IMG/VR virus record: IMGVR_UViG_3300032212_000105
Span: 1 to 33,779 of that record
Origin: a virus
Taxonomy: Duplodnaviria; Caudoviricetes
Length of the DNA: 33,779 bases
Direction: 5' to 3' (one strand)
Under the pieces are notes generated by a model. The model worked only from the letters and a program-made list of their open reading frames with translations, was not told the DNA's origin and did no database searches. Of the stretch, positions 2,667 through 30,338 are shown one piece after another (position 1 is the first letter of the stretch; each line of letters opens with the position of its first letter). Both the position numbers and the translations under genes were made by a program.

Positions 2667-2728
2667 GAATAACCCAATGCTTAGCTGTATTAGCAGCGCG
2701 AGTGCCTGACTAAAGTGAATTGTTATTT
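2667..2728 (-). mobile_element. attC-like site A1 (62 bp)
   Basis: Minus: AAATAAC-AATTC-ACT[T]TAG[T]CAG...CTA-AGC-ATTGG-GTTATTC; R''/R' cores, 5-nt spacers, bulges on L'' arm. Confidence 0.75.
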
Positions 2729-2963
2729 TTGGGGTGAATGAATGAGTGATAAAGTGCATCAATCAAATAAGAGCGAATATCAAATTAGAATTGATGGAAA
2801 GCCTGTTTATTTTCCGCATTCTGTTGACTCATATGCGCTAGATAAATATGCCGAACTCTGCGCTAGCAATCCTGATTGTTATGTAGATATTGTGAGTGTA
2901 AGTACTGAGATTATTTTATCTCAATTTGAATACCATCAACTTAAGCGACATTTTGAAAAATAA
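2673..2963. mobile_element. Integron-type gene cassette 1 (ORF inverted relative to attC)
   Basis: Ends GTTATTTTT (2722-2730) and AAAAATAAC (2956-2964) are complementary over 9 nt. Confidence 0.75.
2742..2963 (+). CDS. Hypothetical protein, cassette cargo
   Basis: 73 aa ORF whose TAA forms the TAAC core of site A2. Confidence 0.8.
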   Translation: MSDKVHQSNKSEYQIRIDGKPVYFPHSVDSYALDKYAELCASNPDCYVDIVSVSTEIILSQFEYHQLKRHFEK

Positions 2964-3016
2964 CCACGACATAAACGGTTGCGCTTTATGCAATCCGTTT
3001 GATGTTTTTGTTAGCT
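2958..3016 (-). mobile_element. attC-like site A2 (59 bp)
   Basis: Minus: AGCTAAC-AAAAA-CAT[C]AAACGG[A]TTGC-loop-GCAA-CCGTTT-ATG-TCGTG-GTTATTT; canonical geometry with two extrahelical bases. Confidence 0.9.
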
Positions 3017-3474
3017 GAATAATTTAATTAAGGAAAAGGAATATGGCAACACTTGGACTAGCTATCTCGATAGCAGCAGATGCATTTAAAGATACAACAG
3101 ATAAAGGCGGCAAGCCGTACATTCTTCATTGCTTGCACGTTATGAATAAATTGAAATATGAAAACGATGAAGAGCTGATGATTGTTGGTGTGTTGCATGA
3201 TCTAATTGAAGATACGTTTTATACAATCGAAGATTTAACAGAGATGGGTTTTTCTAAGCGCGTAACCACATTGATTAATTTATTAACGCATAAAGAAGGC
3301 GTTGATTATATGACGTACATTGAGCAGATAAAAAGCAACAGTGGATGTGCGGTAAAAGTAAAAATGCAAGACCTGCGACACAACAGTGACATTTTAAGAA
3401 TGAAAGGGTTGCGCGAGAAAGACTTTAAGAGGCTTGAAAAGTACCACAGAGCTTATAACTATTTAGCCAGCTAA
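2964..3474. mobile_element. Integron-type gene cassette 2 carrying HD hydrolase
   Basis: Ends GTTAGCTG (3010-3017) and CAGCTAAC (3468-3475) are complementary over 8 nt. Confidence 0.8.
3043..3474 (+). CDS. HD-domain hydrolase, small alarmone hydrolase/Mesh1-like
   Basis: DKGGKPYILHCLHV, GVLHDLIEDT and VKMQDLRHN motifs of the RelA/SpoT-type HD domain. Confidence 0.8.
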   Translation: MATLGLAISIAADAFKDTTDKGGKPYILHCLHVMNKLKYENDEELMIVGVLHDLIEDTFYTIEDLTEMGFSKRVTTLINLLTHKEGVDYMTYIEQIKSNSGCAVKVKMQDLRHNSDILRMKGLREKDFKRLEKYHRAYNYLAS

Positions 3475-3521
3475 CAAAGAGTTCAGCGGCGCGTAGCGTA
3501 CGACTGAGCGAGGTGTTATTA
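3469..3521 (-). mobile_element. attC-like site A3 (53 bp)
   Basis: Minus: TAATAAC-ACCTC-GCTCAG[T]CG[T]ACGC-TAC-GCGC-CG-CTGAAC-TCTTT-GTTAGCT. Confidence 0.8.
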
Positions 3522-3534
3522 ATGAGGATAAGAT

Positions 3535-3669
3535 ATGACATTCAAAAGAATAGGCGGCGTGTGGATAGCATGGTGCAGTGTAAATAAAGTGCCATTCGTG
3601 GCTTTCGGTCAATCTATATGGCAGGCTTCACATAAGATGAATATACAAATTAGCGAGTACTTAAAATGA
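3535..3669 (+). CDS. Hypothetical protein (44 aa, not in ORF track)
   Basis: GAGG RBS; MTFKRIGGVWIAWCSVNKVPF...EYLK*; ATGA overlap with next gene. Confidence 0.65.
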   Translation: MTFKRIGGVWIAWCSVNKVPFVAFGQSIWQASHKMNIQISEYLK

Positions 3670-3917
3670 CCTGCGGATACCCTGAAATTGCGATTATGTG
3701 TCGTGAGCTTTCAATAGTAAAGAATGGCAAATATAAGGCTGATTTTGAATACTGCTCTGATACGGATAGGCTTACTATAAGGGCTTGCAATCGAGATGAG
3801 TCCTATAGGTATGCTGACCTATTAATGCATGAGGATATCTGGCTTAGCGGCCCATCATACAACCCAGACGAGCTGCAACAATGCGGCTTAAAGCTAGCAG
3901 ACCTTTTAAAAAACTAA
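3666..3917 (+). CDS. Hypothetical protein
   Basis: Coupled ORF. Confidence 0.7.
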   Translation: MTCGYPEIAIMCRELSIVKNGKYKADFEYCSDTDRLTIRACNRDESYRYADLLMHEDIWLSGPSYNPDELQQCGLKLADLLKN

Positions 3918-3944
3918 GGCAACCACAAAAGCAAGGAAGGCAAC

Positions 3945-4148
3945 ATGATTCACCTAATAGAAGCATTACGCGAAAAACTTGAAGGGCAGCCAGTTGCTCT
4001 AGCTATTTTGGCAGAGATTAACGAAGAGATTGTGGGTCAAAATGACAGAGAGGGTATTTACAAGCGCAAGATTAAGGACTTGGAAATAGGCATGGACATG
4101 GCAACGGAAGAGTTAAGAGCTTATCAGGTGCTGTCTACTCATGAGTGA
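3945..4148 (+). CDS. Hypothetical protein
   Basis: AAGGAAGG RBS, helical ORF. Confidence 0.7.
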   Translation: MIHLIEALREKLEGQPVALAILAEINEEIVGQNDREGIYKRKIKDLEIGMDMATEELRAYQVLSTHE

Positions 4149-4314
4149 TCGCAAACAAACTATAGTTGCATGCCTTGGGGTTGCAGTACTTATCTTCTCT
4201 ATAGTATTTACTTATGAAAGAGGGTTTAAAGAAGAGCAGGTAAAGCTAACACCAAAGTATGACCAATCAGGGCAGGTAAAGAAGGCTTGTGAAAGGTTTA
4301 TAGCTGCTAATTAA
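4141..4314 (+). CDS. Small membrane-anchored protein (57 aa, not in ORF track)
   Basis: MSDRKQTIVACLGVAVLIFSIVFTY...FIAAN*; ends at site A4. Confidence 0.6.
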   Translation: MSDRKQTIVACLGVAVLIFSIVFTYERGFKEEQVKLTPKYDQSGQVKKACERFIAAN

Positions 4315-4364
4315 TTAACATAACGATACAGGGCGCTTGCGTCCCTGTGATCACCGTGTTATTT
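4313..4364 (-). mobile_element. attC-like site A4 (52 bp) at the holin stop codon
   Basis: Minus: AAATAAC-ACGGT-GAT[C]ACAGGG[A]CGC-AA-GCG-CCCTGT-ATC-GTTAT-GTTAATT; canonical geometry. Confidence 0.9.
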
Positions 4365-4742
4365 CCCGCCCTTAACATTAGCGTAACTTACACCAAAGCT
4401 TGCGCTAATGATTAACCCAAACGATGCAGATATAGGCATAAATAAATCTGTTATTTTATCTGTTACTTCAGCTACTGCGTTTTGATTCCCGCCGCTTGGG
4501 ACGTACCCAAAGAACTCTAAGGTTAATAAAAACAACGTAAGTACAAGGTATATGGTATAAAGCATCGTAACCCTATCAGATAGATTGCGGCGCATTAATC
4601 CATTAGGGTCTAGGGCTTTAACTATCAAAGCCTGAGCCTCTGCTTTTTCCTTATTTGTCTCGATCCATTCCGTGGCAATATTCTCAATAGACTTGAAAGT
4701 ACCGCCGCTGAATATACCTGCAATTGATTTAAAGAAGCTCAC
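4359..4742 (-). CDS. Putative holin
   Basis: Two hydrophobic segments, directly downstream of lysin candidate. Confidence 0.65.
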   Translation of the reverse strand: MSFFKSIAGIFSGGTFKSIENIATEWIETNKEKAEAQALIVKALDPNGLMRRNLSDRVTMLYTIYLVLTLFLLTLEFFGYVPSGGNQNAVAEVTDKITDLFMPISASFGLIISASFGVSYANVKGGK

Positions 4743-23991: not shown

Positions 23992-24188
23992 CTATTATCC
24001 CCCCACCGGATAAAAAGACTAATAAGAGCGTAAATAAAGAATACAAGAATAATGACTAGACCCATAGATTGGTCATTACTTGTGATTATGTCAGGGTTGA
24101 CCCTGCACTCCTCAGTTCTGCAATCCTTGCCTTTATGTGAGAGCTTTGAAAGCTCGCTACCACCAGCTGCAATAATCACAATACTCAC
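23979..24188 (-). CDS. Hypothetical membrane protein
   Basis: C-terminal hydrophobic segment. Confidence 0.6.
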   Translation of the reverse strand: MSIVIIAAGGSELSKLSHKGKDCRTEECRVNPDIITSNDQSMGLVIILVFFIYALISLFIRWGDNRWNR

Positions 24189-24502
24189 AATCCCATCTCC
24201 TCTAATTTAATCATGACCAGTGCTTCGGATATTGCGCGTAGTGGGTTCTTTCTTTGCACTGTGTCGATAGCCTCTGAATTCACATACCCACAATCACTAA
24301 AGAACCCTACGACTAATTCATTCTCAAACGCCAATGGCATGGTTAGGTTGTAATCTGTTAGATAGTTGTAAATTTTCCCAGAAAAAACACCGTAAATCAT
24401 TCCGTCAGGGTCTTGTGATATGTAATCCCCTGACTGGTACAGCCAAATCATAGCGCGGTTAAGCTCTGTATCTGTTAGCCCTGATACGTTTATTTTATTC
24501 AT
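24185..24502 (-). CDS. NinX/DUF2591-like protein (likely start MNKINVS at 24502)
   Basis: LTDTELNRAM..NYLTDYNLTMPL..NPLRAISEALV. Confidence 0.65.
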   Translation of the reverse strand: MNKINVSGLTDTELNRAMIWLYQSGDYISQDPDGMIYGVFSGKIYNYLTDYNLTMPLAFENELVVGFFSDCGYVNSEAIDTVQRKNPLRAISEALVMIKLEEMGL

Positions 24503-25046
24503 TGCCAGTGCCCGGTGCTTTAAAGTTTGCCTGAAACATATCGTCAAACAAATCTCTCAGGTTCTGGTCTTCTGGGTCGCCATTTGTCGCCTTCATGGCC
24601 TTCTCAATAAACACATCGCGCTCGGATTTGATAGGGCGGTATCCATTAAAATGCTTGTCCGTCCATATTTTACCTTCAGCACTAAATACATTGCTTCCCA
24701 TATCATCAATACCAACATAGAAACATTTTAACCATCCCTCATTAGCGCTCTTATACTCACACCACTCACCAACCTTCGGCATATATTGCGCGGGTTCTGT
24801 TGGGCGCTTGCAATGCAATACCCAGCCCACAGTCTCATCAAGCCACAAGCACTCTTCATCCGCCTCACTTGTTGCCCCTCCCTGCCCTGCAAACTCAAAC
24901 CCGCCTAAAAACTCTTTACCACCATTCCATTTAGGGGCAGTGGTGTAGCAATAATCATAATCATTGCTCACATTCTCTTTCCACCACTGTGGGTCTTTTA
25001 ATTGCTGCTCTGTTGGCTCTGATACGTTTATTTTATTCATCCCCAA
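24495..25046 (-). CDS. Modular hypothetical protein, paralog of 25033..25497
   Basis: Shares RPTEPAQYMPxVGEWCE and RPIKSERDVFIExAMK. Confidence 0.75.
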   Translation of the reverse strand: MGMNKINVSEPTEQQLKDPQWWKENVSNDYDYCYTTAPKWNGGKEFLGGFEFAGQGGATSEADEECLWLDETVGWVLHCKRPTEPAQYMPKVGEWCEYKSANEGWLKCFYVGIDDMGSNVFSAEGKIWTDKHFNGYRPIKSERDVFIEKAMKATNGDPEDQNLRDLFDDMFQANFKAPGTGNE

Positions 25047-25497
25047 ACCTCGCGCCGTTGTCGTATAAAACCCCCATGAAATTAGGCAGGTGCATTTTGT
25101 CTTTCATCTCTCCGGTTTTCATAGCCCGCTCAATAAACACATCACGCTCGGATTTAATAGGGCGTAGATTTACACCAACACTAAATACATCTTCATGTCC
25201 ACCCACCTCTAGAACCATAATACTCTTACCCTTATATTCTAGTCGCGCCTTCTTCCAACCCCCTCCGAATATCTCAACCTCGCACCACTCACCAACCTCT
25301 GGCATATATTGCGCGGGTTCTGTTGGGCGTTCGATTACTTCAAACGAGCTTTCCCAATACGCACCGATGGTTTGCGGTTCATCCTCCATCACCCAATAGT
25401 CATTCTTAAAACTATACTCATCCTCGCCTACCCACTTTGTGTATATACCCTCAATCTTATGCGTAGCGCCTTCTGGCCATTGTTCTTTATTTGTCAT
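25033..25497 (-). CDS. Modular hypothetical protein
   Basis: WPEGATH N-terminal motif plus PxVGEWCE module. Confidence 0.75.
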   Translation of the reverse strand: MTNKEQWPEGATHKIEGIYTKWVGEDEYSFKNDYWVMEDEPQTIGAYWESSFEVIERPTEPAQYMPEVGEWCEVEIFGGGWKKARLEYKGKSIMVLEVGGHEDVFSVGVNLRPIKSERDVFIERAMKTGEMKDKMHLPNFMGVLYDNGARFGDE

Positions 25498-25518: not shown

Positions 25519-25569
25519 TTATAACACGTTAATGACAGGGACGTGCCGCCCTGTATTGTGTTGTTATTT
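25519..25569 (+). mobile_element. attC-like site B1 (51 bp)
   Basis: TTATAAC-ACGTT-AAT[G]ACAGGG[A]CG-TGC-CG-CCCTGT-ATT-GTGTT-GTTATTT. Confidence 0.9.
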
Positions 25570-25725
25570 ACTGTCCGCCAAAAAAACAACCTCCGTTTTA
25601 CTCCCGTTTTTGTTTTCTATAATACGTGAATCTATTGGTGTAAACTTACGCCTTTGAGCGCAGTCAGTGGGCTTATACTTGTATCCACATTCTTTTTCAA
25701 CATCACAAAACATACAGTCGCTCAT
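25564..25725 (-). CDS. Small Cys-containing protein, cassette cargo (likely start MSDCMFC)
   Basis: CxxC...C...C pattern; the longer ORF-track start lies inside site B2. Confidence 0.65.
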   Translation of the reverse strand: MSDCMFCDVEKECGYKYKPTDCAQRRKFTPIDSRIIENKNGSKTEVVFLADSK

Positions 25726-25793
25726 ATCGTTTCCATAAATAACAAATAATTCAAAGTTGACGCTCGTTAAACTCACACCCTTTAATAACTGGG
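25564..25793. mobile_element. Integron-type gene cassette 3
   Basis: Ends GTTATTTA (25563-25570) and TAAATAAC (25736-25743) are complementary. Confidence 0.75.
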
Positions 25794-25799
25794 TTATAT
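25737..25799 (+). mobile_element. attC-like site B2 (63 bp)
   Basis: AAATAAC-AAATA-ATT[C]AAAG...CTTT-AAT-AACTGG-GTTATAT. Confidence 0.8.
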
Positions 25800-26048
25800 T
25801 TCTTTAAATTCCTGCTCTATTTCAGTTAATCGTAGCTTTAGTGCATTCATTGAAACCAATCGAAAGCCATCAAACACTTCAACGGGAATATTTGTTTTTA
25901 ACTCTGTTGCATGGTTGTTGTTCCACCCTTGCAGATACCCTAATTTAGAGGGTTTAGTTAATTCTCTTTCCCATACTTCAAGCTCTTTGCTTATATTGAA
26001 CTTTTCATTTTTTAGCTGTGTTGCGCGTTTAAACTGTTCGTCATTCAT
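25794..26048 (-). CDS. Hypothetical coiled-coil protein, cassette cargo
   Basis: GAGG RBS directly after site B3; stop lies in core site. Confidence 0.8.
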   Translation of the reverse strand: MNDEQFKRATQLKNEKFNISKELEVWERELTKPSKLGYLQGWNNNHATELKTNIPVEVFDGFRLVSMNALKLRLTEIEQEFKEI

Positions 26049-26105
26049 ATAAAGACCCTCAAATATAACAAAGCAATCATGCGGATAAACCGCATATTGC
26101 AGCGG
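25794..26105. mobile_element. Integron-type gene cassette 4
   Basis: Ends GTTATATTT (25793-25801) and AAATATAAC (26061-26069) are complementary over 9 nt. Confidence 0.8.
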
Positions 26106-26111
26106 TTATTC
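26063..26111 (+). mobile_element. attC-like site B3 (49 bp)
   Basis: ATATAAC-AAAGC-AAT[C]ATGCGG-ATAAA-CCGCAT-ATT-GCAGCG-GTTATTC. Confidence 0.85.
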
Positions 26112-27882: not shown

Positions 27883-27935
27883 CTATAGCACAGCACACAA
27901 TAGGACACTGCGTGCCTTTGTGCTTGGTGTTATGC
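27883..27935 (+). mobile_element. attC-like site C1 (53 bp, AGC in place of AAC)
   Basis: CTATAGC-ACAGC-ACACAA[T]AGG[A]CAC-TGC-GTG-CCT-TTGTGC-TTGGT-GTTATGC. Confidence 0.7.
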
Positions 27936-28262
27936 TACATTCATCACTATATTTTCAATCACATAGAATTTATGCCAGAAAACATCTTCCCACTCTCCCG
28001 ACTCTCTTAGGGTTACCTCTGTCCAGCCTTCAGGCGGAAGCCTTAATAAATCAACATGATTTTCTATCGCATTTTTAATTAGCGAAATGTCATCTGTTCC
28101 GCCATGACCAGACAAATCAAGACTACTAGTGAACCCTGTAATAGATAGCGAATACTCACCGATAGATGGGTCACAATCACTTTCTGTCTGTATAAGCGCC
28201 TGAACATAATTTACGCTCCTATCTACCATTAATTCTCTTTCCACTGTCACACCTCCACTCAT
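27930..28262 (-). CDS. Acidic hypothetical protein, cassette cargo
   Basis: Fills the inter-site interval exactly; LRESGEWEDVFWHKFY. Confidence 0.75.
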   Translation of the reverse strand: MSGGVTVERELMVDRSVNYVQALIQTESDCDPSIGEYSLSITGFTSSLDLSGHGGTDDISLIKNAIENHVDLLRLPPEGWTEVTLRESGEWEDVFWHKFYVIENIVMNVA

Positions 28263-28306
28263 AACAAATAATTAAAAGGGACGCTTAGCGCCCGTTAATG
28301 TTGCGG
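27930..28306. mobile_element. Integron-type gene cassette 5
   Basis: Ends GTTATG (27929) and CATAAC (28260) are complementary; ORF start and stop both lie inside core sites. Confidence 0.75.
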
Positions 28307-28312
28307 CTATAC
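28259..28312 (+). mobile_element. attC-like site C2 (54 bp, GCT in place of GTT)
   Basis: TCATAAC-AAATA-ATT[A]AAAGGG[A]CGC-TTA-GCG-CCCGTT-AAT-GTTGCG-GCTATAC. Confidence 0.75.
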
Positions 28313-28501
28313 GACTTTAACTAAATACTTAAAGTCTGTATATTTATCAATCACTTCATAAGGCCCGTCAAAGCTAAAATAAATATTAATATCTAGCTTT
28401 GGCCAAGGCAGGTATTCAAACATAGCCTCCGCTACACCTTGAGCACTTACAATTGTATTTTTTCCATTTAATTCAAGGTCAGTTATTTCGTAATCTCTCA
28501 T
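28307..28501 (-). CDS. Hypothetical protein
   Basis: 64 aa; TAG stop forms the variant core of site C2. Confidence 0.7.
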   Translation of the reverse strand: MRDYEITDLELNGKNTIVSAQGVAEAMFEYLPWPKLDINIYFSFDGPYEVIDKYTDFKYLVKVV

Positions 28502-28517
28502 TTATCAATCCCTAGGC

Positions 28518-28574
28518 TGATCGCATGTTAGTGACTAGGCATTTTATAGAGTGCCTAGCTCTTAGTGGTTAAAA
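28518..28574 (+). mobile_element. Degenerate attC-like site C3 or plain hairpin after ssb
   Basis: TGATCGC-ATGTT-AGT[G]ACTAGGCA-loop-TGCCTAGC-TCT-TAGTG-GTTAAAA; spacing fits but R'' lacks AAC. Confidence 0.35.
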
Positions 28575-30079: not shown

Positions 30080-30338
30080 CCCCGTTAATCTTATTAATAA
30101 TGCCCTCTAAATCCGCTTGAGTAATATCTTCTTGCTCACATGGAATCTCGCTTCCATCAATCACAATCCAAGGAATAAGGTCTTCATCCGACTCATAATC
30201 TCCAAGCGTCCAGCATAAGCGCTGCAAATCATTGATAATGCGGGTCATTTGTTCCGGCTCATAATCATCATTGAAAACCGTTACTCTGTTTTTTTGGTGA
30301 TAAACAAGCTCTATTGTGTGTATTTGTTCTTTTCTCAT
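30066..30338 (-). CDS. Hypothetical protein
   Basis: First gene after promoter. Confidence 0.7.
   Translation of the reverse strand: MRKEQIHTIELVYHQKNRVTVFNDDYEPEQMTRIINDLQRLCWTLGDYESDEDLIPWIVIDGSEIPCEQEDITQADLEGIINKINGVDDE

Follow-up and report, generated by a model that had tools for sequence, protein, structure and literature searches.

Integron-type cassettes in a mirror-image layout in a podovirus-like genome, probably moved by an integron integrase

Integrons are regarded as bacterial devices, lately as stores of anti-phage genes. We describe here three arrays of integron-type recombination sites (attC) in a tailed phage of the Caudoviricetes, IMG/VR record IMGVR_UViG_3300032212_000105 (33,779 nucleotides, the whole of which was analysed and is called the window below), in which the genes of the cassettes lie the opposite way round from those of bacterial cassettes. 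Clusters of attC sites without an integrase (CALINs) have been published for tailed phages, with small open reading frames (ORFs) and DNA methyltransferases as cargo, and the integrase IntI1 recombined five of six tested phage attC sites, the bottom strand above the top strand (Qi et al. 2023, PMC9892861). The arrays and viral loci described here have the same integrase-free clusters, small cargo ORFs and DNA methyltransferases; the available text of that study contains no remark on genes antisense to attC polarity and gives no empty-site evidence.

In classical cassettes, the bottom strand is marked by an extrahelical base that lies, upon folding, on the arm opposite AAC, and the opposite gene orientation is treated as an error blocking expression from the Pc promoter (Nivina et al. 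2016, PMC5027507). The window cassettes resemble these in their R and L boxes, extrahelical bases opposite AAC, expected bottom-strand cleavage at AAC and complementary cassette ends, but differ in that the gene is on the bottom strand, is led at its 5' end by the hairpin and has a stop codon that provides the crossover. In bacterial genomes, IntI inserts canonical cassettes at minimal GWT sites (attG) and can excise at nearby sites; solitary attC sites (SALINs) arise through such insertion, and hairpins can be lost through slippage (Loot et al., 10.1101/2022.09.11.507474). The target in the window instead consists of a stop codon followed by C, read on the coding strand in phage operons. Excision increases when the bottom strand serves as lagging-strand template, and the large arrays of chromosomes have the stable orientation (Loot et al. 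2017, PMC5371416). We found no published account of a reversed phage cassette design in a search that covered few subscription journals, and the available text of PMC8618304 and PMC13323075 adds nothing.

The window works like an integron cassette system, with attC sites, cassettes and, as in a CALIN, at least two attC sites within about 3 kb and no integrase of its own. It departs from the canonical layout, in which the ORF is on the top strand and upstream of its attC: here ORFs are on the bottom strand and downstream of their own hairpins. We put at roughly 80% the probability that the arrays are integron-type cassettes that mirror the bacterial ones and are moved by IntI on the folded bottom (here coding) strand.

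Cassette units and their boundaries

Nine attC-type hairpins (S1–S9) form three arrays of four, three and two sites: array 1 (S1–S4, 2667–4364) in a plus-strand operon, and arrays 2 (S5–S7, 25519–26111) and 3 (S8–S9, 27883–28312), both in a minus-strand operon. With our own attC scanner, in which sites scoring at least 10 were counted as strong, six of the nine reached this level, compared with 0–1 such matches in each of five block-shuffled control windows; the S4/S5 pattern matched twice in the window versus 0.00 in 100 shuffles. AAC and GTT cores are present in seven sites, S8 and S9 each having one AGC/GCT arm. A same-strand ORF precedes eight sites and in seven of these ends exactly at the crossover, marked here by a slash: TAA/C at 2963, 3474, 25564, 25794, 26106 and 27930 and TAG/C at 28307, each stop lying at the 5' end of a same-strand hairpin. 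All seven coordinates had been given correctly in an earlier reading of the sequence alone (hereafter the original prediction), which overlooked S4 (4313–4364), where the plus-strand ORF ends 4 nt before TAAC.

Extrahelical bases clearly identify the gene strand as the bottom strand at S2, S4, S5, S6, S7 and S9 (score margin 2.5–6), with the canonical C as the top-strand base at S2, S4, S6 and S7. A polarity opposite to the genes in all arrays, as originally claimed, thus holds at these six sites but not as a blanket statement, S1 being weak and S3 and S8 not callable. Within 2667–3521 the bulge alone is clear at only one of three sites, and it is a relative's empty site, rather than the bulges, that decides the polarity of array 1. 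Five window cargo cassettes have complementary ends of their own (9, 8, 9, 8 and 6 nt), which marks these genes as cassettes but suits either orientation; a stop in TAAC is not diagnostic alone either, since the TAAC of R'' also holds the exact end of 10 of the 34 sense genes next to bacterial sites. It therefore had to be established which hairpin moves together with the gene. Whole-site folding energies failed to separate the strands at the nine window sites, a MAFFT alignment of these sites gave nothing informative and a promoter scan of the arrays stayed at shuffle level; terminator-like matches in the arrays (2 versus 1.7 and 6 versus 2.7, s.d. 1.7, in shuffles) were not used.

A 34,423-bp contig from another study (run X2), 90–95% alike, has position 2669 joined to 3472, with 802 bases skipped and TAAC fitting both sides. 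This relative is without S1, its ORF, S2 and the HD-hydrolase gene and retains the downstream S3. A joint within TAAC with S3 kept implies that the unit is hairpin, ribosome-binding site (RBS), ORF and TAA, upstream hairpins leaving with their genes; a canonical model would keep S1 and predict a joint at the GTT ends (2724/3517), which is not the one observed. The same gap occurs in run X3, the letters between being unknown; run X1 was left out of these counts as a possible source of the window itself. In X2, array 2 is exchanged for 344 other letters with S5 retained, and array 3 for 308 letters, which carry an S1-type arm on the opposite strand, with S8 retained. Between two close relatives (G410 and G412), a 198-bp insertion lies exactly at the TAA/C of an S5-type site. 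Discrete units are thus gained and lost at the R' crossover, and comparison among relatives establishes the unit and the TAA/C crossover that had been proposed.

A single 97-aa gene, followed across loci, carries its hairpin with it. In four viral contigs, where it is 88–98% identical, the upstream hairpin of inverted polarity is kept and both flanks change at TAA/C (4/4). Of 11 metagenome loci, from a scan of 18 of 64 parts, nine have the cassette inverted and none canonical, the other two being without the 5' end of the gene; overall, 13 of 15 loci are inverted and none canonical. The 110-aa window cargo has a 78% identical homolog that is likewise an inverted cassette (two loci, same sequence), and its homologs of 45–54% identity at seven loci are plain phage genes. 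In viral contigs, attC sites were absent at homologs of the 84-aa cargo (50% identical) and of the HD cargo (one locus each). Plasmids searched with the 97-aa and 110-aa cargo, and cultured phages searched with three other queries, gave no match, both weak negatives.

Gene orientation in phages and bacteria

The tally of ORF orientation versus bulge side suggested by the original prediction was made by running two matched attC patterns (A and B) on viral and bacterial collections, one scan covering 19 of 64 parts; loci L173 and L177, from unpublished genomes, were excluded from every count. A scanner-passing site was present at 8 of 9 viral and 14 of 20 bacterial loci for pattern A, and at 52 of 124 and 16 of 28 for pattern B. 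Counted as inverted, canonical and tied, viral loci numbered 7, 0 and 1 and bacterial loci 2, 10 and 2 for pattern A, with 45, 5 and 2 versus 0, 14 and 2 for pattern B. Overall, this gave 52 inverted, 5 canonical and 3 tied viral loci (n = 60) versus 2, 24 and 4 in bacteria (n = 30), and 153 of 166 flanking viral genes were antisense to the top strand versus 13 of 77 bacterial ones. With shared sequence clustered and one mixed canonical cluster set aside, the viral counts were 44, 4 and 2 (50 clusters) and the bacterial counts 2, 22 and 4 (28 clusters; Fisher p = 2e-12, a significance inflated by relatedness). At 33 of 76 inverted viral sites, the stop of the gene in front coincides exactly with the crossover.

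Own-end complementarity of at least 4 nt beyond the core was found in 29 of 40 viral segments versus 6.9% of mismatched pairs, and similarly in bacterial arrays (14 of 21 versus 12.4%). Among 83 inverted viral sites, 15 have a likeness of 85% or more to one of 35 canonical bacterial sites. Matching sites with opposed tallies indicate that, as judged from sequence, the sites are common to phages and bacteria and gene orientation is not.

Cargo was compared between 62 of 67 inverted viral proteins (four near-duplicates and RecT left out) and 33 of 34 bacterial ones. A higher rate of phage-like matches in the viral set was not borne out by PHROG (16/62 versus 10/33), and only the kinds of match differ: DNA methyltransferases make up 5 of the 62 viral proteins (L007, L055, L095, L096 and L108) and none of the bacterial ones. 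No inverted viral cargo matched canonical bacterial cargo within the fetched loci, a small sample. TAA-C at gene ends showed no clear difference in enrichment between phages with and without inverted arrays.

Published phage CALINs, re-examined in the same way, are canonical in TJE1, inverted in MW202573, mostly inverted in PH101 and mixed in P12002L; in phages 3/49, jenny 12G5, H188 and Saratov-12, all listed in PMC9892861, the scanner found no convincing sites. PH101 has four sites with the top strand on plus, annotated genes all on minus and one unannotated plus-strand ORF. Its attC2 is flanked on both sides by antisense genes, and as IntI1 recombined the bottom strand of this site above the top (PMC9892861), one inverted site has in effect been strand-tested. 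The originally proposed phage-specific cassette pool thus appears as a strong bias and not as a rule, given the canonical TJE1 and the antisense genes beside bacterial sites. It is likely that phages keep a cassette pool of their own, probably moved by the host's integron integrase, because a relative lacks two cassettes exactly at the swap point and the layout recurs in most other viral examples.

The acting enzyme and rival explanations

Fifty of the 60 viral loci were submitted and 48 records searched for IntI; three had a match above the cut-off (45 without), one canonical, one tied and one inverted. The window has no intI and attI adjoining an array, as a complete integron would, whereas the inverted record (G448) does: it carries terminase, portal and head genes and a separate phage integrase, and its intI lies directly downstream of, and co-oriented with, inverted cassettes. 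In a second viral record, an IntI of 77% identity is placed likewise; an inverted site lies upstream of it, and an AAC some 40 nt ahead of its start codon is conserved. At L203:3948-4975 and L204:3937-5023, two viral records encode an IntI of their own that points the same way as their inverted cassettes and follows a conserved stretch resembling attI. IntI is present in four of five tested bacteria bearing the S4/S5 site family. We infer that IntI is the acting enzyme, supplied by the host in the case of the window phage.

In the mechanism that we propose, units in the order C-hairpin-RBS-ORF-TAA are gained and lost at TAA/C, where IntI would cut the folded coding (bottom) strand at AA/C, and each array is made up of a resident acceptor (S3, S4, S5 or S8) and the cassettes that have accumulated before it. 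As TAA remains upstream of the cut, the upstream gene would be kept whole and the new gene would face the direction of phage transcription. From the geometry of attI x attC recombination (PMC5027507), insertion of the same circle at a host attI would leave the gene antisense to Pc, from which it would not be expressed. The chemistry need not be new, as the ordinary bottom strand would recombine and the gene is turned round instead. If phage genes run in the direction of replication, the bottom strand of the inverted design would serve as lagging-strand template, which would raise excision (PMC5371416). More speculatively, since minimal GWT targets suffice for IntI and it can also excise at sites close by (10.1101/2022.09.11.507474), an attC that has settled in a phage operon could recombine with the TAA-C stop of whichever gene lies downstream, so making a new cassette; the plain-gene homologs of cargo and cassette ends without a following attC are consistent with such genesis. 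We tentatively suggest that tailed phages might run a parallel, mirror-image cassette pool on integron machinery, making cassettes from ordinary phage genes via TAA-C stops.

Ordinary cassettes, in which a gene precedes its attC and stops in R'', with polarity misread here, would fit the TAAC stops, which are common in canonical cassettes, and the complementarity of own ends, which both models expect, as well as the ambiguous S3 and S8 and an ORF (4359-4742) that meets S4 canonically. The joint of the empty site, in TAAC before S1 and S3 and not at GTT, largely refutes this explanation; the 97-aa gene moreover retains its upstream hairpin, in most loci with no attC behind it, and with this scanner 24 of 30 bacterial loci come out as canonical, so that a misreading is scarcely tenable. 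Unit exchange by phage RecT/NinB-type annealing between similar hairpins, or by replication slippage, would leave the attC shape as a relic, and the window does encode RecT, SSB, NinB and RusA but no integrase. The upstream hairpins of the 97-aa cassette differ between copies, one being collapsed, and in arrays 2 and 3 the alignment with relatives is lost at a distance from the core that ranges from a few to about 9 nt, as annealing could also explain. Annealing proteins need tens of bases, however, and the cleanest joints have only four letters in common; own-end complementarity and a compensatory change in locus L209 point to selection on a circular, folded form, and we consider annealing improbable.

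An unrecognised recombinase of a phage or co-infecting element, rather than host IntI, might serve the sites. Non-canonical cores and extrahelical bases at S1, S5, S8 and S9, the two phages with their own IntI and the many small window ORFs without a family assignment speak for such an enzyme, which is nonetheless very improbable given the lack of a PF00589 match in the window, the 45 of 48 viral records without IntI above the cut-off, the IntI of four in five tested bacteria with the S4/S5 family and the many viral sites that are near-copies of bacterial ones.

Several points weigh against mirror-image cassettes moved by IntI, the reading that we prefer. Extrahelical bases at S5 (G) and S9 (A) are not canonical, S1 is degenerate (best score 6.5 versus 4.0, with T replacing C) and its polarity weak, and neither S3, which has no extrahelical base in the L box (6.0 versus 6.0), nor S8 (9.0 versus 8.5) has a callable polarity; both are resident sites. 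The X2 relative was read through alignment tables rather than sequence letters, and in G412 the hairpin of the 198-bp unit is collapsed, the window unit at 28307 also being without a full one. TJE1, P12002L and PH101 depart to differing degrees from a uniformly inverted layout. The orientation counts rest on our own scanner and gene caller, two patterns and phylogenetically non-independent loci; the caller agreed with the annotation of phage 3/49 in 67 of 68 calls and recovered 29 of 37 checked genes in the GC-rich TJE1. A PF00589 profile search found no tyrosine recombinase in the window (0 of 1 record; control, 14 of 14).

Genome setting and significance

The source is a complete virus record of a 33.5-kb podovirus-like genome with a 278-nt terminal repeat, encoding a terminase, portal and major head protein; the closest terminase matches (40–58% identical) are from phages of Gammaproteobacteria. 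Features of the arrays are collected in Table 1.

Table 1. Coordinates of hairpins, ORFs and units in the three arrays of the window
Feature	Position	Strand	Remarks
S1, degenerate attC-type hairpin	2667..2728	+ (likely bottom)	Absent here in relative; 3' arm found in relative's array 3: mobile
Cargo ORF, 73 aa, no family match	2742..2963	+	Ends TAA/C; two ends complementary, 9 nt
S2, canonical attC	2958..3016	+ (bottom)	Extrahelical G and T on 3' arm of plus strand
Cargo ORF, 143 aa, stand-alone HD_4 (RelA/SpoT-type hydrolase)	3043..3474	+	Ends TAA/C; ends complementary, 8 nt
Two-cassette block, 802 bp	2673..3474	+	Missing from close relative; joint inside TAAC
S3, hairpin, no L-box bulge	3469..3521	+	Resident acceptor, kept in relative
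Four small ORFs, no hairpin detected between	3535..4314	+	Region conserved in relative
S4, canonical attC, end of plus-strand operon	4313..4364	+ (bottom)	255 extra letters directly before S4 in relatives (X2 and X3)
S5, attC of S4 family	25519..25569	- (bottom)	Resident, kept in relative
Cargo ORF, longest frame; likely start ATG at 25725	25564..25776	-	Ends TAA/C; ends complementary, 8 nt
S6, canonical attC	25737..25799	- (bottom)	Clear bulge polarity
Cargo ORF, 84 aa	25794..26048	-	Ends TAA/C; ends complementary, 9 nt
S7, canonical attC	26063..26111	- (bottom)	Other hairpin in its place in relatives
Resident ORF, 75 aa	26106..26333	-	Its TAA/C is the upstream edge of array 2; conserved in relative
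S8, hairpin, GCT core in far arm	27883..27935	-	Resident, kept in relative
Cargo ORF, 110 aa	27930..28262	-	TAA/C stop; homologs include inverted cassette and plain genes
S9, attC-type hairpin	28259..28312	- (bottom)	Crossover side TAG/C
Unit with ORF 28307-28501 (64 aa), leader but no full hairpin	28307..28535	-	Absent or replaced in relatives; upstream edge near 28527-28538

A site of the S4/S5 type closes arrays in related podovirus-like records as well (window:4313-4364; L195:1922-1964; G413 near 30108-30160). In the window, the convergent minus-strand ORF 4359-4742 ends inside the far arm of S4, and sites of this type also occur at the junction of the late operon with the opposite operon, where a late gene ends in the far arm. 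Taken together, S8 and S9 (27887-27889 and 28306-28308) imply that there was once a single site whose core was AGC/GCT in place of AAC/GTT. Units starting at TAA/C with a collapsed or half hairpin were seen at G412:16341-16539, near 1235 in L213 and at window:28502-28535; all are possibly cassettes locked in through stem loss. The ssb stop (28569, TAA/C) was rejected as the edge of array 3, as relatives break near 28527-28538 and retain 28536-28569; a short hairpin right behind this stop (28535-28558), just upstream of the array edge, is conserved in relatives. Elsewhere, 24185-25497 consists of tandem paralogous stretches about 525 bp apart over three ORFs, variable among relatives. The HD hydrolase (3043-3474) has homologs in 286 cultured-phage records and might counter alarmone-based defence.

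Phages thus appear to stock their own operons via integron sites, in a layout that specialists regard as the non-functional orientation. This offers a site-specific mechanism for part of phage mosaicism, and allows the published phage CALINs to be re-read. The first making of cassettes has been called largely unknown (PMC5371416), and the layout makes the question of their origin testable. If true, the mirror pool would be a concrete route of cassette genesis and of phage-to-phage gene exchange that goes unread by the Pc promoters of the host.
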